Of a stretch of 64,000 nucleotides of DNA, positions 22,252 to 46,177 are shown piece after piece; the first letter of the stretch is position 1; every line of letters begins with the position of its first letter. The stretch is from Patescibacteria group bacterium. GTDB lineage: Bacteria > Patescibacteriota > Minisyncoccia > Phycocordibacterales > SIBU01. Location of the stretch: NCBI GenBank assembly GCA_040390045.1, contig JAZJZC010000001.1, positions 254,318 through 318,317 on the forward strand, in the 5' to 3' direction. The translations under genes and the position numbers were made by a program. Below the pieces are notes generated by a model. That model was not told the DNA's origin and did no database searches. It saw only the letters and a list, made by a program, of their open reading frames with translations.

Positions 22252-22267
22252 AGAAAAATCTTCAGAA

Positions 22268-22993
22268 CTAACTTCCCGAGTCGCGCCACTCAAGGTACTG
22301 CAACGCACGAGTGATACTCACAAGGTCGCCTTTCGCCTCATATGTGTGAATGCGCTGGAGCTCGGTCGCGATCAACTGCCGTCGTGTACCTCTCAGCGTC
22401 CCTTGCGAATGGGCGACCGTTTCAGCCCAAGGCAAGGTAGCGCCAACTTGGCAATAGATCTTGAGTGTGGGAACACCGACATCGTACGCTGCGCTCACCG
22501 CCGAGATAAACGCGCGGGGCAGGTGGAACGGCGGCGCGATGATGCACAACTTCGAAAGGTGGTGATGTTGGGCATATTTCATCAATGCCAGCGATTCGGA
22601 GAAGGTATTGAGTGGCTCGAAACAGGGCACCATGTTGATTTTTTCCCTACGAACACCGCATGACACAAAGTGCGTAATCCACGGATAAGAACCGGGGTAA
22701 CCCTTGTTTGTGCCATCTGCGTCGTCAAGAATCAGCAACTGAGATACTCCGCCGGAGAGGCTGAGCCGAATCGCCGGCACAAAGACGGAACCCTGGTTAT
22801 CTGACGTCTGAGTGTACAGATACGCCGGCATATGACTCTCGGGCGGCAACGCGTCCGTTAGGACGATGGTGGTGAGTTGCTGAAGCAGTATTTCTTCTGG
22901 GCTAATTTGGTGGGCCACAAAGCCTCCTTTTGGTTGAATTTTGACGGACAATCCTTGAAACCTCTCGCACGAGCGGTTTCTGATCTGGCACAA
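22268..22993 (-). CDS. DUF218/YdcF-like protein (GC-rich island paralog 1)
   Basis: CIIAPPFHLPRAF and the upstream EPLNTFSESLALMKY region fit DUF218; the N-terminal region is alignable to paralog 45530..46177; no in-frame ATG near the 5' end (TTG at 22993 or GTG), so the start is uncertain. Confidence 0.45.
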   Translation of the reverse strand: MCQIRNRSCERFQGLSVKIQPKGGFVAHQISPEEILLQQLTTIVLTDALPPESHMPAYLYTQTSDNQGSVFVPAIRLSLSGGVSQLLILDDADGTNKGYPGSYPWITHFVSCGVRREKINMVPCFEPLNTFSESLALMKYAQHHHLSKLCIIAPPFHLPRAFISAVSAAYDVGVPTLKIYCQVGATLPWAETVAHSQGTLRGTRRQLIATELQRIHTYEAKGDLVSITRALQYLEWRDSGS

Positions 22994-23115
22994 TTCTACA
23001 CAGATTTGTTACTGTGTCAATGACTCCTTCTGTTCCTCCTTCTTAAAGGAGGTGGCTGAGTCTTCGAGGCCGGAGGATTTTAAATCCCTCCCTCATTAGA
23101 ATGTCGCGCTCCCTT

Positions 23116-24294
23116 TTAAAAGGGAGCATTAACCGACACAAAATCGATAATCCTCTTAGCTCTTTTATCCCAGGTTAAATCTAAAACTTTTTGAAAAGCC
23201 TGTTCGGCAATGCGCGCACCAAAACCCTCGTCATTCAAAACTTTTTCAATCCCCTCTTGTAAACTTTCCATGCTATCCGGCGCTACAAAAACCGCAGTGC
23301 TCTCTTCTAAAATTTCTCGCACTGCCGGCAAATCTGAAGTGACAATCGGTCGGCGCGCCGCCATGTATTCAAACATTTTCATCGGCGACATAAAATTTCG
23401 GTAATATTCTGTGTTTGGATAATTCATCACGAGCACATCCGAAGCTCGCATAAACTTTGCCACGTCCACATGCGAAACATGCTCGATCAACGTAAACGCT
23501 TCCATTGGAATTTTTTCTCGTGAAAGTATTTTGCCAAGCTCATCTTTTTCATCATCACTCAAGCCAACAATAAGAAGGTGCGCGTCAGTTCTCTGCACCT
23601 GAACTAATCTAAAAGCAGCCACTAAAGAATCGACACCCTTATCCATTCCCATAGTTTTATATTTCCCGACATAGGCCACAATTTTAGCGTCCGCCGGTAA
23701 TTTTAAAATCTCGCGCAACTGCGCTTTTGATTCCCCTCCTGAAAAAATTCCGAGATCAACTCCGTTCGGCGCTACCAAAATTTTCTCAGGGTTAAATCCC
23801 GCCTTCACAAAATCATTTTTGATAATGGAATTTACGGTAATCACCTTCTCCGCTCTTTTTAATAACGGGAGCATTCGTCTGCGGTATGCACCAATACCGA
23901 CATGCGTTTCAAAAATCACGCGGTACCCGAGAAACGTCAAAAGGCAGCCCAAATTGTCCATCGTGTAAATAATGCGTTTGCGCGATCCAAAAAGAAAAAA
24001 TAGTAGAACCAACTTATAAAAATGTAGATATTGAAAAACAAATGCCAATCTGCCCAACACGTTACCAAAAATTAAAAAATCAAAACTCCAAATTTTCCGG
24101 ACTCGAAAGGGCGTCTGTACGGAGTAATACTGCATCGGGTCAATTTTAATTTCTTTGAAACGCTTCGGCACAACAAGTTCCACCTCAAGTCCTTGCGCGG
24201 AGAGCGATTCACAAAACCTCGCCAAATAACTGCTATGTGCGGCAGTACTGGGAAATCTGGTGTTGCACAAAACTGTAATTTTGGTTCCCATCAT
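23116..24294 (-). CDS. GT4 family glycosyltransferase
   Basis: Two-Rossmann GT-B architecture; its C-terminal codons lie inside a perfect palindrome GCTCCCTTTTAAAAGGGAGC. Confidence 0.65.
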   Translation of the reverse strand: MMGTKITVLCNTRFPSTAAHSSYLARFCESLSAQGLEVELVVPKRFKEIKIDPMQYYSVQTPFRVRKIWSFDFLIFGNVLGRLAFVFQYLHFYKLVLLFFLFGSRKRIIYTMDNLGCLLTFLGYRVIFETHVGIGAYRRRMLPLLKRAEKVITVNSIIKNDFVKAGFNPEKILVAPNGVDLGIFSGGESKAQLREILKLPADAKIVAYVGKYKTMGMDKGVDSLVAAFRLVQVQRTDAHLLIVGLSDDEKDELGKILSREKIPMEAFTLIEHVSHVDVAKFMRASDVLVMNYPNTEYYRNFMSPMKMFEYMAARRPIVTSDLPAVREILEESTAVFVAPDSMESLQEGIEKVLNDEGFGARIAEQAFQKVLDLTWDKRAKRIIDFVSVNAPF

Positions 24295-25358
24295 TTTTTA
24301 TCTACAACCTGTCTAAAAATTCCTGCTAAATTTTCCGCTAACTTTTTTGTAGTATACCTTTCTGATCTGGTTTTTGCTCGTTCGCCGAGTCGAACCGCGA
24401 ACGCTTGATCAGCCAACAATCTTTCAATAGCTTTTCGTAACGCTCCGGGATTTTCCGCTGGGACAATCAAGCCTTCTCCTTGATCGCTGAAATAATCAGC
24501 AAGTGTTTCCCGCTCGCTTGCAACAATAGCTTTTCCGAGCGACATGGCGTCGAGTAACACGTATTGTCCCGAACAATCAGAGGCGTCTAGATGCTTCTCA
24601 CTTTTAGTTGGAATAACCACAAAAAGCGCTTCCCTATACAACTCTACAAGTTTAGGAAAAGCTACAAAACCCAAAACTTTCAAGTTCGGTGGAATATTTT
24701 TCACACCACTGAGATTTCTCGGCAAGGCGGCAACTCTCACTTCAATTGGCAAATCTTTCACTGCCTCGGCGAGCGTTTGATAATCTCGTCCGTTGTCTTT
24801 CCCAACGCTCAAAATGAAAGGTTTTGTGTTTCGAGAAGGTTCAATTTTTCGTGACATGAATTCAATATCAATACCGTTCGGCACAAAAAATATTTTAGTG
24901 GCGTCAAACCCCTCGGCAATTAAAAAATCCCGCTGAGCGGTCGAAGGACAAACAATCGCATCGAGCGAGGCAATGGTTTTTCGCAAAAGCCAAAGCTTGA
25001 ACTTGTTGTCTGAATTTCTTTTTAAAGTATTCGTAAAAAAAGTATTGTACCAAACGAACTTCGGTCGTTTCATCCGCAAAATAACCTTCGCAACAAGCGG
25101 CAAAAAAAGCGACGCGCCGGAAAAGACAACATCGTATCGAAAAAGCGCTGGCAACAAAAAAAGATTGGTTAGATTAAAATTTTTCTTCCGAATGTAATTA
25201 AGAAAACGGTTTTCAATATACCGCGCGTCCACTCCGAAATCTTTCAAATGATTAAACCCTATCAAATGACTATCAGGCATAGCTCCCTTTTCCCAATCGG
25301 CCAAAAGTTTCCGCCGTTCGCCTGCGAAAAGATAGAGTACGTTAGTGTTGGCAGTCAT
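24291..25358 (-). CDS. GT4 family glycosyltransferase
   Basis: VPNGIDIEF, ILSVGKDNGRDY and a C-terminal E-x7-E-like region; ATG at 25358 (MTANTNVLYLFAG) preferred over the longer ORF. Confidence 0.6.
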   Translation of the reverse strand: MTANTNVLYLFAGERRKLLADWEKGAMPDSHLIGFNHLKDFGVDARYIENRFLNYIRKKNFNLTNLFLLPALFRYDVVFSGASLFLPLVAKVILRMKRPKFVWYNTFFTNTLKRNSDNKFKLWLLRKTIASLDAIVCPSTAQRDFLIAEGFDATKIFFVPNGIDIEFMSRKIEPSRNTKPFILSVGKDNGRDYQTLAEAVKDLPIEVRVAALPRNLSGVKNIPPNLKVLGFVAFPKLVELYREALFVVIPTKSEKHLDASDCSGQYVLLDAMSLGKAIVASERETLADYFSDQGEGLIVPAENPGALRKAIERLLADQAFAVRLGERAKTRSERYTTKKLAENLAGIFRQVVDKK

Positions 25359-25470
25359 AGATTGTTTGAAATTGAACCCAAATGATAGCACAAACTGTAC
25401 ATTGGGAAATAACTTGAATGTCTGTAACAAAAATGCTACTTTGCCAAAAGAATCGTAGAAAAGGAACAAC

Positions 25471-26142
25471 ATGAAAAAAAGACTTCTGCAGAAGTATGCA
25501 GCGTTGGTGCGCGTGGTTCGCGAGGAACACATAAAGGCTGGCATGGAAGCGCAGGGACACTGCTTCTATCACTGCTATGCGGCAGCCAATATGTGTCTCA
25601 CAATTGCGCCGAACAGAAAAATTGCTGAATTGGCGTGGGTAGCGGCGATGCTCCACAACATTGACCACATTTTCGGTAAAAACGTCGTCCAGTGGTACAT
25701 CAATCGCTATCTGGACCTGACGCCCCTTTGCAAACCCGAGAGAGCAATTATTCTCGACGCTGTGCTCAAGCATGGAGACTTCAATTACTCGACCGACGGC
25801 ATTGTCCTTCGAGTCCTGAAGGATGCGGACATGATCGTGAACATGGGACTCACGGTCGCCATGCGCTCCGCCCGGTTTCGCCCGACTACACCGCTTTTCA
25901 ATCCGCGATTTCTCATGCGACGCGATCCTTCAGCAACGTTCAAAGAGCCGGGCACGATCCTCCAAAATCTCAACCACGTTCTCGCGTGGTGGGAAGATGG
26001 TTGGATCCGCCTGCCGAAATCGAAACCCATCGCTCGGCGGAGGTACAAGGCGCTTAGGGCTTATGTCAATGAACTGACCCGACAGCTTGTGGAAGAAGGT
26101 CTGCTCCGGCCGAAGTTCCCCAAAAAACTCATCGTCACCTAA
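25471..26142 (+). CDS. hypothetical protein, tandem paralog A (GC-rich island)
   Basis: His-rich motifs HCFYHC, LHNIDH, KDADM; clearly paralogous to 26278..26961 (shared ELAWVA, LHNIDH/IHNVDH, WIRLPK/WFRLPK); its own terminator follows. Confidence 0.45.
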   Translation: MKKRLLQKYAALVRVVREEHIKAGMEAQGHCFYHCYAAANMCLTIAPNRKIAELAWVAAMLHNIDHIFGKNVVQWYINRYLDLTPLCKPERAIILDAVLKHGDFNYSTDGIVLRVLKDADMIVNMGLTVAMRSARFRPTTPLFNPRFLMRRDPSATFKEPGTILQNLNHVLAWWEDGWIRLPKSKPIARRRYKALRAYVNELTRQLVEEGLLRPKFPKKLIVT

Positions 26143-26151
26143 CAAAAAACG

Positions 26152-26190
26152 CGACCGTTCCGATCAACATCGGAACGGTTTTTCTTTTTT
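26152..26190 (+). terminator. Rho-independent terminator
   Basis: GACCGTTCCGAT-CAACAT-CGGAACGGTT followed by a T-run. Confidence 0.65.
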
Positions 26191-26277
26191 CTCTACCTTC
26201 CCGCACACTATTGACTCAATCCAAAATACATGTTAATGTGCCGTCTAGTTAGAAAACGAAATTCGGTCTTAGAAAAA

Positions 26278-26961
26278 ATGAAACCTCAGAATATCCTACT
26301 ATCCCGATATGGGACATTGGTGGAAATGGTTAGGGCGGATCACATCGCAAAAGGAGCGATCGGCAAAGGACATGACTTCTATCACGCATTACGCGTGGCA
26401 AACATGTGCCTCAAAATTAGCGACTATGACTCCCTGATTGATGAGCTGGCCTGGGTTGCTGGGTTAATTCACAACGTCGATCATCTGTTCCCAGCAAACG
26501 AAATCGGCAGTAACCTTATCCGGTATTTTGATGCGACCAGCCTCTGCGCCGAATACCGCCACATCATAAAGCTCGCGGTTGAACGGCACAGTGGCCGCAA
26601 TCATCCGGACGACAGCGATGTGCAAATCTGCCTCATGGACGCCGACAAAGTGGTGTGCCTCGAAGCTGACGTGATTATGCGCGCGGCACAATTTGTTTGC
26701 CATCTGCCGACGTTTGATCCGCGTTTTGTTCGGACCGACGATCCATCAGCCAATTACCGGAACCCGAAAACGGTGATTCGTGATTTGTTAGGTGTCCTTG
26801 AATGGGTCGATCTAGATGGCTGGTTCCGACTGCCTAAAGCTCTGGAGATGGCACAGGAGCGCGCAAAGTTCATCCGACTTTTCATCAACACCTTCGCCAG
26901 ACAACTGGAGGCCGCGAACATGCTATCGCCGGAATTTCCGGAAGAGCTTATCACCAACTAA
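26278..26961 (+). CDS. hypothetical protein, tandem paralog B (GC-rich island)
   Basis: Start at ATG 26278 by alignment with paralog A (MKPQNILLSRYGTLVEMV vs MKKRLLQKYAALVRVV); its own terminator follows. Confidence 0.45.
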   Translation: MKPQNILLSRYGTLVEMVRADHIAKGAIGKGHDFYHALRVANMCLKISDYDSLIDELAWVAGLIHNVDHLFPANEIGSNLIRYFDATSLCAEYRHIIKLAVERHSGRNHPDDSDVQICLMDADKVVCLEADVIMRAAQFVCHLPTFDPRFVRTDDPSANYRNPKTVIRDLLGVLEWVDLDGWFRLPKALEMAQERAKFIRLFINTFARQLEAANMLSPEFPEELITN

Positions 26962-26975
26962 CGCGAAACCTTTCA

Positions 26976-27008
26976 CAACCGCCCTTGTAACCAAGGCGGT
27001 TTTTCTTT
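26976..27008 (+). terminator. Rho-independent terminator
   Basis: AACCGCCCTTG-TAACC-AAGGCGGTT followed by TTTTCTTT. Confidence 0.65.
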
Positions 27009-27017
27009 GGTTATATT

Positions 27018-28415
27018 ATGATTGAAACATTGCAAAACCCTTGGAAATATGCCAAAATTTGGCACTATCGTACTATGAAATCTCACAAAAAAAGCCCGAA
27101 AAATATAGATCTTCAAGCGGAAGCCCTGAAAGATCTCTACGAGGTTGCTACTGTCTGCAGAATGTGTAAAAGCACTGACCTATTCCCTTATCTTGATTTG
27201 GGATTTACACCACATGCCGACCAATTTCGCGCCGCGCATGAACTTGATATTCCGGAAATTTTTTACCCGCTTCGCGTCCTCATGTGTGAGAATTGCGGAC
27301 TTTCCCAATTGAGCCACATTGTTAATCCAAAAGTTCTGTATCAATTTGATTACCCTTACGAACAATCCATGACCAAAACTGGTCAGGCGCACTGGAATGG
27401 ATTTGCCCAATCGGTAATTTCGAAATTAAACCTGAAGAAAGGCGACGTGGTTGTCGACATTGGCAGTAACGTCGGAACTCTTTTGAAATCTTTTAAAACG
27501 CTTGGTATGAAAACTATCGGTGTTGATCCAGCGCCAAACATTGTAGAAATTGCCAACAAAGAACACGGCATCCAAACTCTCTGCGATTTTTTCGGCACAA
27601 AAAGCGCTAAGAAAGTGAAAAAATTAGTTGGTCCGGTTTCAGTTGTAGTTGGCGCCAACGTCTTCGCTCATATTCACGATTTGGACGACGTAATGCGCGC
27701 GGTAAAATTTCTCCTAAAAAAAGATGGGGTTTTTATTTTTGAATCTCCCTATTTCAAACACCTCGTCGACTCTCTTGAATACGACACGATCTACCACGAA
27801 CATCTCTCGTATCTTTCGGTAAAACCCTTGATTCCATTTTTTAATAAATTCGGTCTTGAAGTTTTCTCAGTTGAAGAAACCGACATTCACGGCGGCTCGT
27901 TCCGAGTATTTGTCGGCAGAAAAGGCGTACACCCGATTGATGCCAGCGTCCAAAAATTTGTTACGATCGAAAAAGAAACCAAACTTCACGAAAAAGAAAC
28001 CATGCTCGATTTTGCCAAACGCGTCCGAAAAAATCGCGACGACTTAATGACCATGATTGAAAAACTTTTACACCAAGGTAAAAAAGTCGCCGCAGTTTCC
28101 GCTCCCGCCAAAGGCATGACGCTTCTTAATTACATTGGAATTTCCAATCGCCACATCACACTTATCTCCGAAAAAGCGCGCCTCAAAATTGGCCGTTTTG
28201 CTCCGGGAGGCCATGGTGGTGGACACATTCCGGTTGTATCTGATGAAGAACTGCTCAAAGAAAATGTTGATTATGCGCTTCTCCTTGCCTGGAATTTTTC
28301 CAAAGAAATTATTGATAACCTAAAAACCTTCAGCGACAAGGGTGGAAAATTTATTATCCCAATTCCCTTCCCGAAAATCGTAGGAGCTAACGAGTACAAA
28401 AAGAATGATAATTAA
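27018..28415 (+). CDS. sugar C-methyltransferase (TcaB9-like) paralog 2
   Basis: CRMCKS...CENCG zinc ribbon, VVDIGSNVG SAM motif, C-terminal domain as in the other paralogs; longer N-terminus, start uncertain (27018 or 27075). Confidence 0.6.
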   Translation: MIETLQNPWKYAKIWHYRTMKSHKKSPKNIDLQAEALKDLYEVATVCRMCKSTDLFPYLDLGFTPHADQFRAAHELDIPEIFYPLRVLMCENCGLSQLSHIVNPKVLYQFDYPYEQSMTKTGQAHWNGFAQSVISKLNLKKGDVVVDIGSNVGTLLKSFKTLGMKTIGVDPAPNIVEIANKEHGIQTLCDFFGTKSAKKVKKLVGPVSVVVGANVFAHIHDLDDVMRAVKFLLKKDGVFIFESPYFKHLVDSLEYDTIYHEHLSYLSVKPLIPFFNKFGLEVFSVEETDIHGGSFRVFVGRKGVHPIDASVQKFVTIEKETKLHEKETMLDFAKRVRKNRDDLMTMIEKLLHQGKKVAAVSAPAKGMTLLNYIGISNRHITLISEKARLKIGRFAPGGHGGGHIPVVSDEELLKENVDYALLLAWNFSKEIIDNLKTFSDKGGKFIIPIPFPKIVGANEYKKNDN

Positions 28416-28791
28416 ACATCTAAAAAATAATTTTGAGGACGAACGTGGGATTATTCACGACATTACAACCCACACACTGATTGATGCTATTACCTACATC
28501 ACCTTTAAAAAAGAAAGCGTGCGAGGCAATCACTTCCACAACAAGACGATGCAGTATGATTATATTTTGGAAGGCAAATTTCTCTGCCGTTCAAGAAAAG
28601 GCTACGATGGCAAAGTGGAAGAAGCTACCGTTTCTGCCGGCGATCTCATCACTCACGAATTCCCCGACCATCACGCCTACAAAGCGCTTGAAAATGGAGT
28701 AATGATAAGTTGCACGTTGGGACCAAGACAGGGTGATGAATTTGAAACTGATGTTGTCAGACTCACAGGGAAAGAGAAACTCATTGATTAA
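28405..28791 (+). CDS. cupin-fold sugar 3,4-ketoisomerase (FdtA/QdtA-like)
   Basis: 128 aa; the RGNHFHNK motif matches the RGxHAH active site of the WxcM/FdtA family; it immediately follows a C-methyltransferase. Confidence 0.5.
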   Translation: MIIKHLKNNFEDERGIIHDITTHTLIDAITYITFKKESVRGNHFHNKTMQYDYILEGKFLCRSRKGYDGKVEEATVSAGDLITHEFPDHHAYKALENGVMISCTLGPRQGDEFETDVVRLTGKEKLID

Positions 28792-28795
28792 TTTA

Positions 28796-28838
28796 AAAAG
28801 CCCCCCGATTCGCAAAGCGAATCGGGGGGCTTTTTTTA
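28796..28838. terminator. bidirectional Rho-independent terminator
   Basis: AAAAAGCCCCCCGATTCGC-AAA-GCGAATCGGGGGGCTTTTTTT between convergent genes; shares its core with the hairpin at 15157. Confidence 0.8.
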
Positions 28839-30581
28839 TTTAAGTGGCGCCGGTTTTTCAATAATAAAATCTCCAAGGGCAAGTGCGTCAATTCCTGAAT
28901 CGAAAAAACAGCGGATGGCTTCTCTCGGCGAACAGGCAATCGGCTCTCCCATGATATTCATCGACGTGTTGAGAAGAACCGGTGTGCCTGTAATTTTTCC
29001 AAACTCAGTTATCAATTTCCAATATCGTGGATTATCTTTCTGGGTGACAGTCTGAGGACGCAAAGTGCCGTCAACATGGACCACCGCGGGCAATTCATGT
29101 TTTCTTTCAGGCTTGCAATCGAATGACGTCACCATAAATTTCTCTGCGCGAGGCTTCACCAAATATTTTTCTTTGACCTCGTCTGCCATTGATGGACAAA
29201 ATGGTCGGAACGCTTCGCGAAACTTTACTCGCGCATTGATGATGTCTTTATTCTCAGCTTTCTTCGGACTCATTAAAATCGAACGATTGCCCAAAGCGCG
29301 CGGACCAGATTCCATTCGTCCTTGAAACCAGGCGATGATTTTGTCTTCAGAAAGCATGTGAGCCACCTCGGAACAAACGTCGTTTGATTTGCGATACTGC
29401 AATCGGCGTTCCTTTAAAATTTTCTCAATCTCGTCATTTGAATATTCAGGCCCCCAGTACAAATGATCCGCCACAGGATTTTTCAAATGTCCTCCCTCAC
29501 TTGCCACAAAAAGCGCCGCTCCGAGTGGCAACCCCGCGTCTCCTGGATTTGGATATGGATGATGAGTTTCTACTTTTCCCGACTGCCAAATTCTTTGATT
29601 GAGCTTAACGTTGAGGAAAATTCCACCAGATGTCGCCAAAATTTTGGTGTCCTCTTTGCTAAGCCACGGCAAAACAAATTCCATCGCTTGCTCTTCAAGC
29701 ACCCTCTGGGCTTCAGCGGAAACATCTTCCTTGCCATACTTTTTTACAATTTCGGCAATGCGGAGGGCCTCATCAGAATGCCAGTGAATCGAACCGAGCA
29801 ATTTAAATTCTTTAGTTTCCGGAAAGTTGTACGGCTTCACCAATTCTCCATTTTTAAATTCAGGATAAAAACCATCTAACACTCCGCGAACTTTTGAGAG
29901 GTCACCGTACGGCGCAAGCCCCATAGTTTTTCCCTCGCCATCTCCATGCCACCAGCCGATAGCCTCAGTGACATTGCTGTAAAACCAACCAAGTGAACTT
30001 TTAAAATCATATTTAACGAGCGGATAAATTTTACCATTCTCCCCTCTCCAAATGCACGATGATTTACCGTCACCTGATCCGTCCATGGTGGCGATAACCA
30101 TTTTCCGATTATCATTTGCGGTAAAGTAGGCGCCAGCGGCATGGGCTAAGTGATGTTCAACAAACGTAACCTTGGGAAGTTTTTCAAGAAAAAAATCTCG
30201 GCAGTACAGAGGTGTTCGTAGGCCGGTACTCGGACGATTGCCGAAAAATAAACTGCGGACGATTCGCTTGCCGGAGAGGTAGATTTTTTCTTTCAGATTT
30301 TCTGCCGGTTTTTCGGGAATAGCTACTTTCAAACCAAAAATACATTCGAGCTGATCGCCAACCGCCAATCCCGCGACCGCGATCTCATCGATTTCTCGCG
30401 CAGAAATACCTGCCATTTTTAAACAAAATTTAATTGAGGCGAACGGCAAATCACTTGAATGCTTAACGTGATTAAAACGCTCCTCGGAAACATCGGCTAC
30501 AATCTGACCGTCAACAATAATCGCCGCACCCGCGCCGTGTCCAAAATGGAGTCCCAAAATAGTGTATTTTTTCTTACTCAT
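28836..30581 (-). CDS. carbamoyltransferase, NodU/CmcH (TobZ-like) family
   Basis: N-terminal YTILGLHFGHGAGAAIIVDG and a large YrdC/Kae1-like fold typical of O-carbamoyltransferases; ATG at 30581. Confidence 0.7.
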   Translation of the reverse strand: MSKKKYTILGLHFGHGAGAAIIVDGQIVADVSEERFNHVKHSSDLPFASIKFCLKMAGISAREIDEIAVAGLAVGDQLECIFGLKVAIPEKPAENLKEKIYLSGKRIVRSLFFGNRPSTGLRTPLYCRDFFLEKLPKVTFVEHHLAHAAGAYFTANDNRKMVIATMDGSGDGKSSCIWRGENGKIYPLVKYDFKSSLGWFYSNVTEAIGWWHGDGEGKTMGLAPYGDLSKVRGVLDGFYPEFKNGELVKPYNFPETKEFKLLGSIHWHSDEALRIAEIVKKYGKEDVSAEAQRVLEEQAMEFVLPWLSKEDTKILATSGGIFLNVKLNQRIWQSGKVETHHPYPNPGDAGLPLGAALFVASEGGHLKNPVADHLYWGPEYSNDEIEKILKERRLQYRKSNDVCSEVAHMLSEDKIIAWFQGRMESGPRALGNRSILMSPKKAENKDIINARVKFREAFRPFCPSMADEVKEKYLVKPRAEKFMVTSFDCKPERKHELPAVVHVDGTLRPQTVTQKDNPRYWKLITEFGKITGTPVLLNTSMNIMGEPIACSPREAIRCFFDSGIDALALGDFIIEKPAPLK

Positions 30582-30680
30582 TTTAAAATTCTTAATCCAA
30601 GAAATCGTATCACAGGATGTGTTCCCCAGCAAAATTTCAACTTTTTATATTCCTCCACTTATGCTAAATTGTTGTGACTT

Positions 30681-36999: not shown

Positions 37000-37004
37000 A
37001 TTTC

Positions 37005-37042: not shown

Positions 37043-37077
37043 TATACTATTTAATTTGTTAAAACCTCTCTTTCTCT

Positions 37078-37103: not shown

Positions 37104-37184
37104 AACTTAAAATTTGACAAAACAATAATTTTCGTGTTATCGTGGCGCGAGTCACTTCGAAAAATTCAACTGAGAAAGGCCAGT

Positions 37185-37808: not shown

Positions 37809-37833
37809 AAATTCGTCTTCGCACCATATCGCA

Positions 37834-37869
37834 AGCGCCGATCCAAGATTTGGTTCGGCGTTTTTTTCT
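37834..37869 (+). terminator. Rho-independent terminator
   Basis: GCGCCGATCCAA-GAT-TTGGTTCGGCG followed by TTTTTTTC. Confidence 0.65.
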
Positions 37870-37897
37870 TAAAAGTTTTGCATAACTTCTTTACCAC

Positions 37898-37925
37898 ATG
37901 TAACCTTTCGAGCGAATGGTTACAT
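37898..37925. repeat. 26-28 nt palindromic element ATGTAACCTTTCGAGCGAATGGTTACAT (right copy)
   Basis: Direct repeat of the element at 37078 with one mismatch in the core; the two copies bracket the GC-rich DUF218 gene and its terminator. Confidence 0.75.
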
Positions 37926-38090
37926 AGAGAAATGCGAGATAAAAAACTAAATTTATTTTTTATTTCAAAATAGAATTTTTGCAGTCAGATGCAGTTCGAG
38001 GCGCAAGTGATTTTGCGACTAAAACGTATTCATATACGTGGCAGGAGCAAAATCGTGAAGCAACGAAGAAGGGCGCTGACTGCAAAAGTT

Positions 38091-38804: not shown

Positions 38805-38869
38805 AAGACTGTAATTTTAGTACATAAAAAAATAGCGCACAACTAGGTTGCGCGCTAAACAAAAATATT

Positions 38870-39523
38870 TCAAACGACAGGTTCAAGAACGATCGCCTCG
38901 CGGAAGCCGACGCGAGGGTTGTCATCGGCAGCGTCACCCAATTTGATGTTCACCGCAAGGCCCAAATGATTTTCATACAAGGCGTGAACCACCGGGCCAC
39001 TCACTGGCAACAAATTTTTTGGAAACACCGTTGTAGTTTCTTGATCAAAAACCTCGGCCGTTACCCAATTCAAAAAGCAGCAGCCAATAACATATGCGCT
39101 GAGAGGAAGCGGCACGGTCTGCCGACCAGCAAGCCAGTGTAAGGCATACTTGGCGGGTAATCCCATTGTTCCCGCAGTTGGACATAGATCCCGTTGCACA
39201 ATGTAAAGTTTCGACCCGTTAGGTCTATCGTTCTCTCCGATATGTTCTTGAGCTTCATCGGAAACTCGAATATTGACCCCGGGAAAGTATCTCGCCTTTT
39301 CTAGGGTTTCCCAAACAGTAAGCCCCGGATCGTAGATGACCAAAACCTCCTTCCATGGAAGCCGCGCGGGAAGTTTGAATTTTTTCTGTACATCAAGTTG
39401 CGGTCCAAAATACTTGAGATCAACCCGCGCCATATGTGAAAACCACTTATGGCAATCCGTATCCTCAATCGCAAAGCCGGTAGGAACAACCGGCGCTGCC
39501 TGAACTCTTGTTTGTTCTGACAT
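38870..39523 (-). CDS. hypothetical protein
   Basis: ORF with moderately elevated GC; ATG at 39523 (ORF track begins at a GTG). Confidence 0.35.
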   Translation of the reverse strand: MSEQTRVQAAPVVPTGFAIEDTDCHKWFSHMARVDLKYFGPQLDVQKKFKLPARLPWKEVLVIYDPGLTVWETLEKARYFPGVNIRVSDEAQEHIGENDRPNGSKLYIVQRDLCPTAGTMGLPAKYALHWLAGRQTVPLPLSAYVIGCCFLNWVTAEVFDQETTTVFPKNLLPVSGPVVHALYENHLGLAVNIKLGDAADDNPRVGFREAIVLEPVV

Positions 39524-39669
39524 ATTTGAAGTACCTTTCACTGCTTTTTCTCTCCGATTTCTAACACATTTTTAGAAAAACACAAGGGGTCGTAATAATT
39601 TTCAGCCGGTGCTACAATGCTTTTTGCAGCCATTCTGCTGCAATTAACGCGTTCGGATGAAATTACTTT

Positions 39670-40731
39670 ATGGCAACATTTAACAAAAAAACTCTTCTCA
39701 TCTGTGGTGGTGCGGGCTTCATCGGCTCAAATTTCATCCACCACATTCTGAGCAACTACCCGACCGTTCGGCTCATCAATTTAGACAAGCTCACCTATTC
39801 CGGAAATCTCGACAACCTCGCCGACATTTCGAAAGACAAACGCTACACTTTTATCAAAGGCGACGTGGCTTCTGAAAAAACCATCAAAGCCATTTTCAAA
39901 AAATATTCTCCCGACTACATCATCAACTTCGCTGCGGAAACTCACGTCGATCGAAGCATTCACGTCGGTGCACTCGAATTTATCAAAACCAACATTCAAG
40001 GAGTGTTCAATATTTTGGAAGCTGTAAAGGAAAATAAAAATGTAACAAAATATCTCCAGGTTTCGACAGACGAAGTCTACGGTACGCTCGAGCTCGACTC
40101 AAAAAATAAATTTACCGAAACCACTGCCTTTGATCCCAACGTTCCCTACGCTGCGACTAAAGCCGGAGGCGATCTTTTATGCAATGCCTATCACACCACC
40201 TGGCATGTGCCGGTTGTCGTCACCCACTGCTCCAACAACTATGGCCCGTATCAATATCCAGAAAAATTAATTCCTTTTTTCACCGTACGAATGCTCGAGG
40301 GTAAAAAATTACCACTCTACGGCGATGGCAAAAATGTCCGCGATTGGATTTATGTACTCGATCATTGCCGCGCGCTTGAGCTTGCACTGCTTAATGGTGT
40401 GGCAGGTGAAGTCTATAACATCGGTGCTGATAATGAGTTATCTAATGTAGAAATTGCCACAATGATCGCTAAACAATTTGGCAAGACTACTGACGTGTTT
40501 GAATTTGTACCCGATCGGCCAGGACATGACAGACGCTACGCCATCGACTCGGCAAAAATTGAAAAGGAACTTGGTTGGAAGCCGACCTACTCTTTCGAGC
40601 GGGCATTTAAAGAAACAGTTGATTGGTACAAGAATCATTTACCGTGGATTAAAAAAATTCAAAAGAAAACTGGAGTTTTCAATCCGCACATTGATTTGTG
40701 GAAGAAACATGCAATTGGAAATAAAAAATAA
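39670..40731 (+). CDS. rfbB: dTDP-glucose 4,6-dehydratase
   Basis: LICGGAGFIGSNF, STDEVYG, YAATKAGGD, DRPGHDRRYAID are canonical RmlB motifs. Confidence 0.85.
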   Translation: MATFNKKTLLICGGAGFIGSNFIHHILSNYPTVRLINLDKLTYSGNLDNLADISKDKRYTFIKGDVASEKTIKAIFKKYSPDYIINFAAETHVDRSIHVGALEFIKTNIQGVFNILEAVKENKNVTKYLQVSTDEVYGTLELDSKNKFTETTAFDPNVPYAATKAGGDLLCNAYHTTWHVPVVVTHCSNNYGPYQYPEKLIPFFTVRMLEGKKLPLYGDGKNVRDWIYVLDHCRALELALLNGVAGEVYNIGADNELSNVEIATMIAKQFGKTTDVFEFVPDRPGHDRRYAIDSAKIEKELGWKPTYSFERAFKETVDWYKNHLPWIKKIQKKTGVFNPHIDLWKKHAIGNKK

Positions 40732-40735
40732 AAAA

Positions 40736-41470
40736 ATGACAAACAACACAAACATCAAGGGCGTAATTTTGGCAGGAGGTTTGGGAACAAGACTCTATCC
40801 GCTGACTAAAATTACCAACAAGCACCTCTTGCCAATCTACGACAAGCCGATGATTCTCTATGGGATTGAAACTTTAAAAAACTCTGACATAGAAGAAGTG
40901 ATGATTGTTTGTGGGCGCGAACATGCCGGACACTTTATGAATTTTCTCGGCTCAGGAAAAGAGTTCGGCGTTAAACTTTCCTACGCCATTCAAGATAAAA
41001 ACAACGGTGGTATTTCCGATGCCCTTATGTGCGCAGAGGATTTTGCTGACGGCGCAAGTGTGGCTGTGATTTTGGGTGATAATATTTTTGAAAATAATTT
41101 TTCTAAAGAAATCACCAACTTTAAAAGTGGCGCCATGGTTTTCCTCAAAAAAGTGGCTGACCCGCACCGATTCGGCGTAGCGGTATTTGATACAACCGGC
41201 AAAAAACTTTTGACCATCGAAGAAAAACCTAAAAACCCAAAATCTGATTTCGCCCAGACCGGTTTCTATATTTATGATGCCAATATTTTTTCCAACATTA
41301 AAAAAATTAAACCTTCGGCTCGTGGAGAACTGGAAATTACTGACGCCAACAATATGTATCTCGAACACGGTGAGCTTAATTTTGCGATTGTAAAAGGTTA
41401 CTGGCTCGACGCCGGAACATTTGATTCCCTACTTGAAGCCAGCACTGTAATCGCCTCGAAAAAGAAATAG
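40736..41470 (+). CDS. rfbA: glucose-1-phosphate thymidylyltransferase (short-form sugar nucleotidyltransferase)
   Basis: GVILAGGLGTRLYPLTKITNKHLLPIYDKPMI; ATG at 40736 right after the upstream stop. Confidence 0.7.
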   Translation: MTNNTNIKGVILAGGLGTRLYPLTKITNKHLLPIYDKPMILYGIETLKNSDIEEVMIVCGREHAGHFMNFLGSGKEFGVKLSYAIQDKNNGGISDALMCAEDFADGASVAVILGDNIFENNFSKEITNFKSGAMVFLKKVADPHRFGVAVFDTTGKKLLTIEEKPKNPKSDFAQTGFYIYDANIFSNIKKIKPSARGELEITDANNMYLEHGELNFAIVKGYWLDAGTFDSLLEASTVIASKKK

Positions 41471-41471
41471 C

Positions 41472-42308
41472 ATGAAAACGCTACCGAAAATTTTAATCAC
41501 CGGAAGTAACGGCATGGTTGGTTCATACATCGATTTTGGAATTAAAACTGATCGAGACACACTTGACGTTACCAATCTTGAAGCGGTGATGAGCGCGGTA
41601 CGGAAACACCAACCAAAAGTAATTTTGCATCTCGCCGCACTCACCGATCTCGACGTTGCGGAAAAAAATCCCACACTCGCCTATCACATAAACACTATCG
41701 GCACGTACAACATCGCGCTGGCCGCGCGCGAAGTAAAAGCTAAATTAGTGTACATTTCTTCAACTGGTGTTTTTGATGGAACCAAAAAAACTCCCTACAC
41801 TGAGAAGGACGTGCCAAATCCAAAAAATTATTACGGCCATTCAAAATTCGCAGGAGAATTGATTATTCAAAGCCTGCTGAAAGATTACATTATCGCTCGT
41901 GGCTGTTGGATGTTTGGCGGCGGACCAACGCTTGATAAAAAATTTATTTCCAAAATTGTAGCACAGCTAAAAAATCCTGAGACCAAAGAAATAAAAGCGC
42001 TAAATGATGTGCACGGATCCCCCACCTTCGGCAAAGATATTGTTGAAGCTTTGAAAAAATTGATTTTAAAAGATGCTACAGGAATTTTTCACCTGACAAA
42101 TGCTGGCAACTGTTCCAGATTCGATGTGGCCAAAATTATCGTGAAAGTCTTAAAACCATCCGTCAAAGTGATCGGAGTCACAGGAGACTATTTCAATCTT
42201 CCCGCCAAACGTGTCACCAATGAATCTGCGACCTCTCGAGTAAGCCTCTTACGCCCATGGCAAGAAGCTCTCGAAGAATATTTAAAAAGTGAGTGGAGTC
42301 CTCTGTAA
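41472..42308 (+). CDS. rfbD: dTDP-4-dehydrorhamnose reductase
   Basis: ILITGSNGMVGS, YGHSK (YxxxK), 278 aa, in an rfbB-rfbA-rfbD arrangement. Confidence 0.7.
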   Translation: MKTLPKILITGSNGMVGSYIDFGIKTDRDTLDVTNLEAVMSAVRKHQPKVILHLAALTDLDVAEKNPTLAYHINTIGTYNIALAAREVKAKLVYISSTGVFDGTKKTPYTEKDVPNPKNYYGHSKFAGELIIQSLLKDYIIARGCWMFGGGPTLDKKFISKIVAQLKNPETKEIKALNDVHGSPTFGKDIVEALKKLILKDATGIFHLTNAGNCSRFDVAKIIVKVLKPSVKVIGVTGDYFNLPAKRVTNESATSRVSLLRPWQEALEEYLKSEWSPL

Positions 42309-42310
42309 CC

Positions 42311-43540
42311 ATGGCTCACGTTATTACAAAAAAAATCTGCCGAATTTGTGGTGGGAGTAAACTAACCAGAGTCCTCGACCTCGGCGCGATGCCTCCGGCC
42401 AACGCTTTTCTTACTAAAAGCCAACTGCGAAAAAAGCAGGATAACTTCCCTTTAGCCATTTATTTTTGCCAAGACTGCACTCTCCTGCAACTGATTGATG
42501 TTGTTGATCCCGAAATTCTTTTTAAAGATTATCTGTACCAAACAAGCGCCAGCTCGCCACTGCTCATACATTTTAAAAAATTGGCACAAGAAATTCTGGA
42601 AAAACACATTGCTTCCAAAAATGATTTAGTGGTTGAAATCGGTAGCAACGATGGGAGTTTGTTAGAACATTTTAAAAATCGAGCACGAATTCTTGGCGTT
42701 GATCCTGCAGAAACGATGGTTACAATTGCCGGAGCAAAAGGCGTTCCAACACTCAGTGCTTTTTTTAACGAAGAAACCGCAAGAAAAATTATCGATTCTC
42801 ACGGCCACGCCAAAATTATTCTGGCCAACAATGTGCTCGCTCATATTGATGACTTGCACAGTGTTTTTGCGGGAATCGAAACCCTTCTCGACGCAGACGG
42901 AAAATTTATTTTCGAGGCTCACTGGGTTGGCAACCTCCTTGGAAAGGGCGGGTTTGATCAGATTTATCATGAACATCTTTGTTACTTTTCACTCCACGCC
43001 GTCAATCATCTTGCCAAAAAATTTGGCTTGAAAGTGCTTGATGTTGTTCTAGTTCCAATTCACGGCGAATCCCTGCGCGTCACTTTGGGAAAAGTTGGAA
43101 CTCCAAATGCTCGCGTTTCAGCCTTCATGAAAAAAGAAAAGAAGCTTGGCCTTGAAAAATTCGCGACGTACCAAAAATTTTCCCAAAAAGTGGCGAAAAA
43201 TAAAATAAAACTTTTGGCACTTCTAAAAAAATTAAAACAGGAGGACAAAAAAATTCTCGGCTACGGCGCGCCAGCTAAGGGCAACACCCTTTTAAATTTT
43301 CTTAAACTTGATCAAAACACCTTAGATTTTATTACCGACACGACGGCATCCAAACAAGGCTTGTACGCGCCCGGCACGCGAATTCCTATCATCGCTCCGG
43401 AAAATCTTACGAGCGCCAAACCAGATTATATTCTCTTACTTGCGTGGAACTACGCAGATGAAATTCTCAAAAAAGAAACGGCGCTCAGAAAATCTGGCGT
43501 GAAATTTATTATTCCTGTACCAGAAGTAAAAGTTGTTTGA
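42311..43540 (+). CDS. sugar C-methyltransferase (TcaB9-like) paralog 3
   Basis: CRICGG...CQDCT zinc ribbon, VVEIGSNDG SAM motif, C-terminal GYGAPAKG domain. Confidence 0.6.
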   Translation: MAHVITKKICRICGGSKLTRVLDLGAMPPANAFLTKSQLRKKQDNFPLAIYFCQDCTLLQLIDVVDPEILFKDYLYQTSASSPLLIHFKKLAQEILEKHIASKNDLVVEIGSNDGSLLEHFKNRARILGVDPAETMVTIAGAKGVPTLSAFFNEETARKIIDSHGHAKIILANNVLAHIDDLHSVFAGIETLLDADGKFIFEAHWVGNLLGKGGFDQIYHEHLCYFSLHAVNHLAKKFGLKVLDVVLVPIHGESLRVTLGKVGTPNARVSAFMKKEKKLGLEKFATYQKFSQKVAKNKIKLLALLKKLKQEDKKILGYGAPAKGNTLLNFLKLDQNTLDFITDTTASKQGLYAPGTRIPIIAPENLTSAKPDYILLLAWNYADEILKKETALRKSGVKFIIPVPEVKVV

Positions 43541-43543
43541 ATT

Positions 43544-44350
43544 TTATTTTCTCGGCAAACTCCAAAAACGCCGGCAGATATTGAGATGATAGACGTGCCT
43601 CTCCCACTCAAGTCGCCAGGGCAACCGAGTCCCTCGACAAAAAATTAAATTTCGAATATATCGAAAAAAGTAGAGCGCTGAAATTTTTGCATTTTCTAAA
43701 CACACGAGAAGCCAACCCCACAAAGAAATTTGTCCGCGACGAGTGGCCTCGAGTTCAATATAGTGATTCCATTTTTGTCGATGGAACATCGGGTCAGGAT
43801 TCATTGGCACAAGCATGTAATTTTCTAACTTCAGAACCGGCGAGCCGGATTTTACCTCAATGCGTTCGTGAATTGATTTAATGAAATGAGTAACCGCGCC
43901 TTTGTGAAAAAATCGCATTTGTTGAGTTGGGTACGTGGCGGCGCAATCAACAACCTCTCCCTGTAAAACATATTTTCGTGGAACCCAAAACGCGGCTGAT
44001 GGATGCCCCGTCGAAATAATAGTATTGATTTCAGTTTCCAATTTCGGCGTCATCAGCTCATCAGAGTCCAAGAAAAAAAACCACGAGTGACTGGCCGCCT
44101 CAAGCATTTGATTGCGGACACCAGAAAAATCTATAATTTTATTATTCGCATCCTTAAACTCTGATGCTTGAATGAGCACCTTCACGCCGTAGGCTCGAGC
44201 TAAAGACAGTGTTTCATCGGTTGAGCCGCCGTCACAAATAATTATTTCAGAAAAATTGGCAACCGAATCAAGCGCCTTCTGTAAACTTTCTCCGGAATTA
44301 AAGGTGAGAATTCCTACACTACACTGAATTTTGTTTCCGGTTTTATTCAT
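43544..44350 (-). CDS. GT2 family glycosyltransferase
   Basis: CSVGILTFNSGES...ICDGGSTDET...DSDE motifs; ATG 44350 overlaps the upstream stop (ATGAATAA). Confidence 0.6.
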   Translation of the reverse strand: MNKTGNKIQCSVGILTFNSGESLQKALDSVANFSEIIICDGGSTDETLSLARAYGVKVLIQASEFKDANNKIIDFSGVRNQMLEAASHSWFFFLDSDELMTPKLETEINTIISTGHPSAAFWVPRKYVLQGEVVDCAATYPTQQMRFFHKGAVTHFIKSIHERIEVKSGSPVLKLENYMLVPMNPDPMFHRQKWNHYIELEATRRGQISLWGWLLVCLENAKISALYFFRYIRNLIFCRGTRLPWRLEWERHVYHLNICRRFWSLPRK

Positions 44351-45446
44351 GCTTTTTAAATGACTCAATGTTGGAAATTATTTTAGAAACAAACGATTTT
44401 AAACTGTGATCTCTCTCAACAATCGCCCGCAATTTCAGACCAAGAGAAAATCGCTCTTCCGAACTCATTTTGGCTATACCCAGGATTTTGTCAGATAAAG
44501 CCTTAAAATCAGCCTTTGGATACATTAAATCGCCTACAAATGGCCCTAAAACGTCCTTAAATGCCTCATTACAGGTCAAAATGGGCAATCCCACAGCCAT
44601 AGCCTCCGGGACGACTTTATCGAGGCTGCCGGTATGTCCCATGTTAACGAAAAGATCATACTCGGAAAGCTTATATGGAAGGTCCACATTAGCAACTGCA
44701 CCCTTAAAATTGATGACGCCCGACAAATCCTTTTTAGCAACTTTTTCCTTTAGACGAGCTAAATATGCCTCGTCCAAAAAGGTTAATCTCGGTCCTATGA
44801 TGTCAACCGTAATTGGCGTAGAAATTTCTTGACGGACCTTTTCAATCGCCTCAATCAACGTATCGTAATCTTTCGATGGTGTGATTCTTCCTACTGTTAC
44901 AATCCGAAGTTCCTTTTGGTTTGTGTTCTGTGGTCTGTGTTCCGTGTTAAATTTCCCCGTGTCGATTCCCTGTCCGATCACCTTTACTTTTTTGCTTTTT
45001 AATCTGAACCCGCTCGTAGTCGATGTAAAAACAATATCCGTAAAAAACAAAGCCACTTTCAAATGCCAGGGCGTGCTTTTATGGGCGTACCAAAGCGTCA
45101 CAGTTTTACCAAAAAGTTTCCAAAAAATTCCTCCGAGAACAATGTATTCTGGATTCATGTGGACGAACACTGCGTCGTATTCATTTCTATTTTGTACGAT
45201 ATATCGTACAAAGCGCCACGAATACAGAAGTCGAGAAAAAGTTTTTAGTTTGTAGTTTGTAATTTTTAGCTTTTCTTTTCCCAAAGAAAAAACCTTTACA
45301 TTGTTCGGCAAATTAACTTCGCCTTTTTCAAGACAAATCGCCACCACGCTTTCTGCCTGTTTAGAAAACTCCGCAATCCAACCATGCATAAACCCGAGCA
45401 CCGCGTCTCGCTCATCAATTTTTTGGGTAACAATTAAAATCCGCAT
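44343..45446 (-). CDS. GT4 family glycosyltransferase
   Basis: GT-B with a C-terminal EAMAVGLPILT region; contains a 20-nt palindrome and a GTGGTCTGTGTTCCGTG repeat shared with 50606..51781. Confidence 0.65.
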   Translation of the reverse strand: MRILIVTQKIDERDAVLGFMHGWIAEFSKQAESVVAICLEKGEVNLPNNVKVFSLGKEKLKITNYKLKTFSRLLYSWRFVRYIVQNRNEYDAVFVHMNPEYIVLGGIFWKLFGKTVTLWYAHKSTPWHLKVALFFTDIVFTSTTSGFRLKSKKVKVIGQGIDTGKFNTEHRPQNTNQKELRIVTVGRITPSKDYDTLIEAIEKVRQEISTPITVDIIGPRLTFLDEAYLARLKEKVAKKDLSGVINFKGAVANVDLPYKLSEYDLFVNMGHTGSLDKVVPEAMAVGLPILTCNEAFKDVLGPFVGDLMYPKADFKALSDKILGIAKMSSEERFSLGLKLRAIVERDHSLKSFVSKIISNIESFKKHE

Positions 45447-45529
45447 ACTTCATTGTAACTTAGAAACCTCGTCGCGACTTACTTGCTAAAGTATATCATT
45501 CGTGTTATTGTTTTTTCAGTAAAAAAGGT

Positions 45530-46177
45530 TTGCGATCCAGCCAACCTGAAAGCGAAAGGGAGTTTGTGTTTGACACCTTATTGCAGTACCTCGTAAGCAA
45601 GTGGGGAGTCGAAAACGCGTTGCCTCCAGAGGCTCCGCCAATTGACTTCTTCATAGGAATTTCCTATGGCATGACCCGCACAAATCTTACAGTTGCCACC
45701 GAACGAATCACCCGTCTTACTGCGGAGATGGCGAGAGCGCAGCAAGCGCCAATTATCATTAGTTGCTGTGAATACTTATTTCGAGGCGCAGCATTTAGCG
45801 AGTGGCAACTGCGGCATCGAATTTTCGAAACCTTTCGTGTTCGATACTACCGAGCCGGTGACATGAATAATTCGATGCAGGAATCTCGGCAAATCCTCAA
45901 ATGCGTCTCCGAACATGGATTACCGACAAGACACATCGGCATCGTCACGGGAATTGGCCATTCTCGGTTCGTTAGTGAGCGGTACGGGAAACTTTTCCCG
46001 AACTCGAAAATCACGATTACCTGTGTTCCTTTCGACTCAGAATATCAACCGGATCACCCAGCCTGGATTCAGCGGGGACCGTGGAGGTGGCTCTTCGCTC
46101 ATGTTGCAAGGCAGATACTCTATCACGTGCGTGGCGAGAAAATGGCCGACATGCAACATTGGGTGCCAAAGGCATAA
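45530..46177 (+). CDS. DUF218/YdcF-like protein (GC-rich island paralog 3)
   Basis: IGIVTGIGHSRFVSERYGKLF motif; its N-terminus aligns with paralog 22268 (ENALPPEAPP vs TDALPPESHM); the ORF begins at a TTG (no ATG until codon 47), so the start is uncertain. Confidence 0.4.
   Translation: MRSSQPESEREFVFDTLLQYLVSKWGVENALPPEAPPIDFFIGISYGMTRTNLTVATERITRLTAEMARAQQAPIIISCCEYLFRGAAFSEWQLRHRIFETFRVRYYRAGDMNNSMQESRQILKCVSEHGLPTRHIGIVTGIGHSRFVSERYGKLFPNSKITITCVPFDSEYQPDHPAWIQRGPWRWLFAHVARQILYHVRGEKMADMQHWVPKA

Follow-up and report, generated by a model that had tools for sequence, protein, structure and literature searches.

We analysed a 64,000-nucleotide (nt) stretch of contig JAZJZC010000001.1 from a Patescibacteria group bacterium (GenBank assembly GCA_040390045.1, positions 254,318 to 318,317 of the forward strand), the whole of which is called here the window, with a focus on three small genes termed B, F and H. 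The initial annotation had described them as three DUF218/YdcF-like paralogs, each in a GC-rich island of its own and two of them with apparent non-ATG starts. Open reading frame (ORF) calls confirm that all three are real coding ORFs at the positions originally proposed, with the limits 22268-22993(-), 37056/37185-37808(+) and 45530-46177(+), and Pfam matches reveal that they are enclosed by a supercluster of glycan-biosynthesis genes that spans more than 40 kb. The assigned limits are as follows.

22268..22918, minus strand: gene B, GTG start, 216 amino acids (aa), predicted soluble, DUF218 superfamily
37185..37808, plus strand: gene F, ATG start, 207 aa, predicted soluble, DUF218-like
45566..46177, plus strand: gene H, GTG start, 203 aa, predicted soluble, DUF218-like
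13138..55098, no strand assigned: glycan-biosynthesis supercluster

The supercluster comprises three C-methyltransferase-type genes for nucleoside diphosphate (NDP)-hexoses, RmlB/RmlD-like and other NDP-sugar epimerases/dehydratases, a DegT aminotransferase, a carbamoyltransferase, a UDP-glucose dehydrogenase, GT11, many GT4/GT2 and two PMT_2 (GT-C) genes; two of the three genes under study adjoin a GT2 and a PMT_2 (GT-C) enzyme. Orthologues of the B, F and H families are found in other Patescibacteria, and the B family extends to DPANN archaea and to a small number of other lineages. The B protein is identical to P0001 (216 aa) and together with its 16 orthologues constitutes a family of 17 sequences, in which the motifs FH..R.F, HSQG and GYPG are invariant. 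The F protein is identical to P0018 (NCBI V4467_01635, Patescibacteria group bacterium) and its family has eight members, while the H protein is identical to P0026 (NCBI V4467_01680, 203 aa). In a word-indexed homologue search H seemed an orphan, which was corrected by a full HMMER search that returned 143 relatives; a scan of GTDB genomes with the H family gave no match. Among the B-family matches there is also P0016, 405 aa long and derived from a eukaryotic (MMETSP) transcriptome, which keeps the invariant FH..R and HSQG. An antisense ORF that overlaps B, 22211-22663(+), was regarded as a by-product of GC-rich sequence.

B starts at the GTG at 22918, with the Shine-Dalgarno site AAAGGAGG 4 nt upstream, and H at the GTG at 45566, with the Shine-Dalgarno site GAAAGGGAG 3 nt upstream; the TTG codons that open the maximal ORFs of B and H (22993 and 45530, respectively) are not true starts. 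F starts at the ATG at 37185, which has a Shine-Dalgarno site and corresponds to a Met start shared by all eight members of its family. The orthologue alignments of all three families begin at the assigned starts, the database gene calls P0001 and P0026 agree with them, and the AlphaFold models of B and H contain a confident N-terminal helix encoded upstream of the first in-frame ATG. Shine-Dalgarno sites, alignments and model helices thus bear out the proposal that B and H have non-ATG starts and that coding sequence extends upstream of their first ATG. The resemblance originally cited in its support (TDALPPESHM in B, ENALPPEAPP in H) carries no weight, because its BLASTP E-value of 2.3 is not significant and the linker in which it lies is variable within both the B and the H family, although the conclusion drawn from it was right.

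Each of the three genes is predicted to form a self-contained transcription unit, with a Shine-Dalgarno site, a terminator, and either a promoter-like site (B and F) or an upstream motif (H). The elements identified are listed below.

22993..23020, minus strand: promoter-like site of B, TTGACA, 16-nt spacer, TAGAAT, 11 of 12 consensus positions
22226..22251, minus strand: terminator of B, 11-bp stem with 7 GC pairs followed by TTTATTTTTT, directly past the stop codon
37114..37143, plus strand: promoter-like site of F, TTGACA, 18-nt spacer, TATCGT, with a TG extension
37833..37863 (~37833-37870), plus strand: terminator hairpin of F (-18.5 kcal/mol, z = -3.3) followed by the T-run TTTTTTT
46184..46208, plus strand: terminator hairpin and T-run of H (-10.3 kcal/mol, z = -4.1)

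A promoter scan of the coding strand upstream of H returned no promoter-like site; the motif found there, TTGCTA...TGTTATTG, was spotted by eye.

Relationship to the DUF218 superfamily

B, F and H do not behave as recent paralogs. All pairwise BLASTP comparisons between them have E > 1, i.e. there is no significant similarity, the profile of each family matches its own gene in the window and not the other two, and closer relatives (36-75% identical) are found in other organisms. The word "paralogs" used in the initial annotation is not tenable, and homology between the three is seen at the profile level only.

Kinship with DUF218 (PF02698, Pfam gathering threshold 27.6 bits) emerges from scans of the individual family members. 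PF02698 is matched by 7 of the 17 members of the B family (best E 2.9e-5), by all but one of the eight members of the F family (7/8, best E 3.7e-6; one of them, P0025, was already annotated with PF02698), and by 36 of 60 sampled members of the H family (best E 1.4e-8), including seven with E <= 4e-6, which is roughly the threshold level. No competing family is matched by more than two members of the B, F or H families. Comparison of the families with hhalign links B with F (80% probability, E 1.5e-5) and H with B (82.5% probability, E 9.7e-6), the latter over 84 columns that span the core motif, and a protein 45% identical to H (P0028) bears the IMG name 'SAM-binding protein YcdF (DUF218 family)', where SAM stands for S-adenosylmethionine. 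An NCBIfam scan of the B, F and H proteins gave no match, and a sub-threshold match of F to the Pfam DUF218 profile is the sole match obtained in direct scans. Comparisons by hhalign with the single sequences of YdcF and SanA from E. coli were mostly uninformative, except for that of B with SanA.

Analysis of the alignments reveals a core common to the three families, N-[TS]-x-x-[E/x] followed after ~24-29 residues by [IV]-[IV]-x-x-x-x-H-x(1,2)-R, in which the His and the Arg are invariant or nearly so within each orthologue family. In B the core reads NT105...FH132LPR135 (H and R invariant, T invariant in the 6-sequence subset A7), in F it reads NT117...H144WGR147 (invariant), and in H it reads NS103...H132SR134 (N, H and E106 conserved). 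The H-x-x-R motif proposed originally is therefore correct as far as the conserved His and Arg of all three families are concerned, but H has the spacing H-x-R. A SanA-type core (Thr and His ~24-29 residues apart, then Arg) was found in B, F and H, and in the hhalign alignment of the B family with E. coli SanA the residues T105 and H132 of B fall on T125 and H149 of SanA, which are essential in alanine-substitution experiments (PMC12176290). The third residue of the triad in SanA is E182, a Glu ~33 residues after the His; candidate acidic residues are the nearly invariant E159 in H (His+27), the invariant E186 (His+54) and E108 in B, and the invariant E194 in F (His+50).

The AlphaFold (AF2) model of B, with a predicted local distance difference test score (pLDDT) of 91.6, has E. 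coli YdcF (3CA8) as its top PDB match (probability 1.0, template modelling (TM) score 0.52). The AF2 model of H (pLDDT 96) has helices and strands in the same order as B, and its best PDB matches are the universal stress protein (USP), LarE and TtuA folds. Matches of H to USP and PP-loop folds are expected, because the fold of YdcF has itself been described as adenine-nucleotide-alpha-hydrolase-like (PMC12176290). No hydrophobic segment was detected in B, F or H (the maximum of the Kyte-Doolittle 19-residue window is 1.51, 1.02 and 0.89, respectively), and the proteins are predicted to be soluble like YdcF, without an N-terminal membrane anchor. Profile comparisons and the matches of individual family members assign B, F and H to three distantly related subfamilies of the DUF218 (YdcF/SanA/ElyC) superfamily and do not identify them as recent paralogs. 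The models of B and H agree with this placement, and the DUF218 assignment holds at the superfamily level only.

Conserved slots, divergent occupants and base composition

Comparison with related genomes reveals that the positions of these genes are better conserved than their sequences. The slot of B is kept in a Saccharibacteria metagenome-assembled genome (L013), in a syntenic block of seven genes, where B is 45% identical and the other genes 45-81% identical at the protein level. The slot of H is kept in six metagenomic contigs with the order GT2 - GT4 - H - GT2/methyltransferase - PMT_2; the H orthologues in these contigs are 36-43% identical to H and the flanks 65-84% identical to those in the window, and between the contigs the flanks are up to 100% identical, the occupants 33-77%. 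For F the conserved element is only the GT2 neighbour, which is 76% identical, compared with 46% for F and its homologue. B and F homologues in other metagenomic contigs lie in clusters of the same type, often adjoining a GT2 of ~240 aa and a PMT_2. Because B and H occupy the same slots in related Patescibacteria contigs, their positions appear to be old and the genes were probably not inserted independently into this genome; together with the GT2 neighbour retained by F, this speaks against the repeated acquisition in separate islands that had been suggested initially.

At the H slot, the conserved stretches reach as far as the 5' untranslated region (left gene) and the 3' end (right gene), and what differs among the contigs is the whole unit, including the promoter region and the terminator. 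Two contigs from one metagenome (L022 and L023) are 94.9% identical in DNA over 274 nt of a flanking gene, whereas the H alleles that they carry are only 41% identical in protein and give no blastn match, a contrast that indicates replacement of the allele within a fixed slot. In another pair (L020 and L031) collinearity extends through the H gene, with 75% identity in DNA and 77% in protein, so that, judging from these alignments, vertical descent and replacement have both occurred at the H slot. The characteristics of a replacement-type flexible island are thus found at the H slot, while B and F exhibit the contrast in divergence only. Of the earlier idea of a cassette-borne accessory function, a modified form survives, namely that of complete units that diverge more than their flanks and are swapped at the H slot.

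Several vehicles of gene transfer were considered and rejected. Integron-type gene cassettes do not agree with the use of both strands, with the promoter-like sites that B and F have of their own, and with the lack of shared flanking sites; a search around all GC-rich islands found no shared flanking repeats or att-like sites. Transposon-like delivery was rejected since only F has an inverted repeat, which is absent from the loci of its homologues. The two arms of this repeat bracket the F transcription unit:

37071..37102, no strand assigned: left arm, 32 nt, 29/32 complementary to the right arm, palindromic hairpin of -12.6 kcal/mol
37901..37932, no strand assigned: right arm

No such match is expected by chance (0 matches), and both arms carry the hairpin GTAACCTTTCGAGCGAA[A/T]GGTTA. 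The window contains only two copies of the repeat, and none occurs at the F-homologue loci or in any of the 32 loci fetched. No relatives of the genes were matched on phages, plasmids or viral contigs, and a role in defence was rejected, as no island gene has a PADLOC match.

The GC content of the whole genes is 0.55 in B, 0.53 in F and 0.50 in H, compared with a window median of 0.427, and in 400-nt windows they form local peaks of 0.50-0.55 against a background of ~0.42. We redrew the codons of each protein from the codon usage of the window itself, with the following results (GC3, GC content at third codon positions):

B: observed GC 0.552, expected 0.483, GC3 z = 6.1 (GC3 0.64, 0.44 expected)
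F: observed GC 0.531, expected from host codons 0.502, GC3 z = 2.0
H: observed GC 0.505, expected from host codons 0.475, GC3 z = 2.6

Amino-acid composition alone lifts the expected GC to 0.48-0.50, and accounts for most of the GC excess in F and for about three fifths of it in H. The GC enrichment is real, and atypical codon usage is strong only for B. Elsewhere, genes of the B family have a GC content of 0.50-0.60 in hosts of 0.36-0.44, and a GC3 of 0.55-0.73 compared with 0.31-0.46 in the flanking genes, while for genes of the H family the GC content is 0.49-0.57, with hosts at 0.42-0.45. The window contains at least six further small genes that are equally GC-rich, among them a NUDIX gene, two HD-domain genes in tandem and several genes of unknown type to which no Pfam match is assigned. 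The description of B, F and H as lying each in its own GC-rich island is accurate for the nucleotide-level peaks, but does not set them apart from these other genes, and most of the excess in F and about three fifths of that in H is compositional. The other GC-rich small genes lie in or beside the glycan cluster:

15215-15784, plus strand: GC-rich small gene
25471-26142, plus strand: GC-rich small gene, first HD-domain ORF
26230-26961, plus strand: GC-rich small gene
38870-39541, minus strand: GC-rich small gene
52992-53861, minus strand: GC-rich small gene
58581-58931, minus strand: GC-rich small gene
61674-62222, minus strand: GC-rich small gene

Their GC3 z-scores are 4.8 for the NUDIX gene, 6.3 and 4.3 for the HD pair, 0.8 for the gene at 38870, 3.0 for that at 52992 and 3.1 for that at 58581. 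The two HD-domain proteins are 43% identical and constitute the sole related pair in BLASTP among the proteins of the GC-rich islands. The first HD ORF, 25471-26142(+), and a GT4 ORF on the opposite strand, 24291-25544(-), overlap by 74 nt at their 5' ends, and one of the two start codons probably lies further downstream.

Other features of the window were noted. Two bidirectional terminator-like hairpins, 15154-15196 and 28790-28840, lie 13.6 kb apart and share a near-identical stem, CCCCGATTCGC...GCGAATCGGGG (77% identity across 48 nt). A 31-nt inverted repeat (51241-51271 and 51495-51525, 97% complementary, with TTCGTAATTC-like units) is located inside the GT4 gene 50606-51781(-). The three C-methyltransferase-type genes (18896-20086, 27018-28415 and 42293-43540; Methyltransf_13/14) are paralogous, and the first two share stretches of ~70% DNA identity. 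At the edge of the cluster, 55930-57825(-) encodes a 631-aa protein with weak matches to TrwB/TraG/VirD4 coupling proteins and HerA-type ATPases.

Interpretation and comparison with known systems

The explanation we favour, and regard as reasonably probable, is that B, F and H are three distant, soluble members of the DUF218 superfamily, encoded as autonomous units in a glycan supercluster, with B and H in fixed slots and a fast turnover of the occupants. Each protein would adopt a Rossmann-like fold of the adenine-nucleotide-alpha-hydrolase type and might bind a nucleotide-containing or phosphate-linked ligand (e.g. SAM, an NDP-sugar or a polyprenyl-phosphate-linked sugar), and its action on a glycan precursor would rely on the conserved Thr/Ser and His residues together with an acidic partner. 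The glycan would in this way be tuned or diversified, by analogy with the control of lipid-linked precursor flux by SanA/ElyC. B, F and H would represent the fast-turnover part of the cluster, in which, at least for the H slot, whole alleles may be replaced when the conserved genes on either side recombine. Replacement from a GC-richer pool of alleles, combined with a composition rich in Ala, Gly, Arg and Pro, would explain GC-rich islands one gene in size. What the analysis demonstrates is the coding status and start sites of the genes, their kinship at superfamily level, the solubility of the proteins, the conserved slots, the contrast in divergence between occupants and flanks, and a single case of allele replacement; the ligand, the chemistry, the role in glycan biosynthesis and the source of the GC bias we infer.

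A number of observations weigh against this explanation. With regard to the family assignment, the initial annotation had held that scores below the DUF218 threshold in an HMM (hidden Markov model) search would refute it, and in the direct Pfam scan B and H indeed have no match and F scores 16.2-16.6 bits, below 27.6. The kinship consequently holds by the matches of the family members, by hhalign, by the match of the B model to YdcF and by the IMG name, but not by direct scan. No sampled member of the B family reaches the Pfam threshold (as converted from E-values; best E 2.9e-5), the hhalign link between F and H is weak (19% probability), PDB sequence-profile searches with all three families found neither YdcF nor anything else of relevance, and YdcF is absent from the top 50 PDB fold matches of the H model. 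A biochemical activity has been established for no DUF218 protein, hence the proposed chemistry is an analogy only. With regard to the GC content, the GC3 excess of F and H is small (z = 2.0 and 2.6), and one control gene has z = 2.1. With regard to the setting, one B homologue is located between rpsP and trmD (L019, 5830-6555; GC 0.60, host 0.44), a position normally occupied by rimM, one H homologue between pgk and recJ (L032, 6962-7633), and another B homologue (P0010) among genes without a function in glycan biosynthesis. The B and H families thus occur also as lone genes in housekeeping contexts, and the suggested connection with envelope or glycan biogenesis, though it agrees with the neighbourhood described here, is not universal. 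Finally, allele replacement was seen in one pair of short metagenomic contigs, with 274 nt of flank on one side.

These observations bear also on the rival explanations. Independent recent horizontal acquisition of each gene from a GC-richer donor, with no lasting tie to the neighbours, would agree with the clearly foreign codons of B (GC3 0.64 compared with 0.44, z = 6.1), with the isolated GC peaks that B-family genes form in hosts whose GC content is 0.36-0.44, with the spread of this family over very different taxa (including archaea and one member from a eukaryotic transcriptome), with the housekeeping contexts rpsP-trmD and pgk-recJ, and with the 32-nt inverted repeat around F. We nevertheless consider it unlikely, since B and H have the same slot and orientation in several related contigs and F the same GT2, so that the positions predate this genome, the islands share no flanking recombination sites, no relatives are found on phages, plasmids or viral contigs, and the GC excess is largely compositional for F and to about three fifths for H. 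A second rival is vertical inheritance with fast evolution, in which the GC richness would be intrinsic (due to amino-acid composition or selection on the mRNA) and no genes would be exchanged. In its favour, with host codons the amino-acid sequences predict a GC content of 0.48-0.50 against a background of 0.43, the GC3 excess of F and H is marginal, the slots are conserved, and L020 and L031 are collinear through H. This explanation, too, seems improbable to us, because L022 and L023 combine flanks 95% identical in DNA with H alleles that have 41% protein identity and no DNA similarity, and because the GC3 of the B family stays at 0.55-0.73 next to flanks of 0.31-0.46 despite saturating divergence, which would require gene-specific selection on synonymous sites.

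A different kind of doubt concerns the family itself, as at least one of the genes, most likely H, could belong to another Rossmann-like nucleotide-binding family (USP-like or PP-loop-like) and serve in ligand sensing instead of as an enzyme. H and B themselves lack a Pfam match, H carries H-x-R in place of H-x-x-R, and the best PDB matches of its model are USP, LarE and TtuA rather than YdcF. Such matches are, however, to be expected from the fold of YdcF itself (PMC12176290), and PF02698 is matched by 36 of the 60 H-family members sampled (best E 1.4e-8), no other family being matched by more than two, while the hhalign link between H and B (E 9.7e-6) runs across the core motif, which leaves this alternative very unlikely. 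More speculative than our favoured explanation, and in our opinion possible rather than probable, is a wider proposal in which the small GC-rich genes would be an accessory pool shared by ultra-small prokaryotes (bacteria of the Candidate Phyla Radiation (CPR) and DPANN archaea). Each gene would be exchanged as a complete single-gene transcription unit, its destination being a fixed position in an otherwise conserved glycan cluster or, now and then, a housekeeping operon. Members of the pool would be the three DUF218-like subfamilies and probably also the NUDIX and HD genes nearby, the persistent GC excess would be its signature, and the glycan of the cell surface would be diversified gene by gene.

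The DUF218 family is widespread and biochemically uncharacterised; in E. coli it has been connected with keeping the lipid-linked precursors of the cell wall and of the enterobacterial common antigen (ECA) in balance. The presence of three soluble subfamilies in one glycan supercluster of Patescibacteria suggests that the link between DUF218 and glycan precursors may reach well beyond Enterobacterales. B, F and H are new members of a known family and represent a fairly ordinary type of accessory gene; being small and soluble, the proteins could serve biochemical work. Members of the B subfamily apparently escape the Pfam threshold now in use, so that the subfamily is probably under-annotated. 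That alleles are swapped while their slots are conserved suggests, from limited evidence, that single-gene turnover is one way in which episymbiotic bacteria may vary their surface.

Among characterised proteins, E. coli YdcF (3CA8, PF02698) resembles B, F and H in being a soluble, single-domain protein of ~200-260 aa, and probably also in its Rossmann-like alpha/beta fold; its binding of SAM is known from the title of the PDB entry and from PMC12176290. Direct sequence similarity between YdcF and B, F or H is undetectable, the position of their invariant His is taken by Thr in YdcF (VVQDPTMQRR, in a weak local alignment with the F family), and the ydcF gene lies outside any glycan cluster. 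SanA, ElyC and YgjQ share with the three families the Thr...His core (T125/H149 in SanA, T105/H132 in B), and their common theme, the control of polyprenyl-phosphate-linked precursors of envelope glycans (PMC12176290; PMC3879167), fits the glycan-cluster setting of B, F and H. Conservation of sanA and elyC has been reported mainly for Enterobacterales (PMC12176290). In contrast to these membrane-anchored, periplasmic proteins, B, F and H have no predicted anchor and would thus act in the cytoplasm; the position of E182, the third triad residue of SanA, is not clearly matched in them, and they represent different subfamilies from SanA/ElyC, with Patescibacteria as hosts.

At the level of genome organisation, the closest parallel is provided by replacement-type flexible genomic islands, which are known in clusters for surface glycans (O-antigen, "glycotype"). 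Like such islands, the slots described here combine conserved flanks with a highly divergent occupant that is exchanged apparently by recombination in the flanks. Unlike them, the unit that is swapped is a single small gene that carries a promoter and a terminator of its own rather than a multi-gene block, and it encodes a DUF218-like protein rather than a glycosyltransferase.

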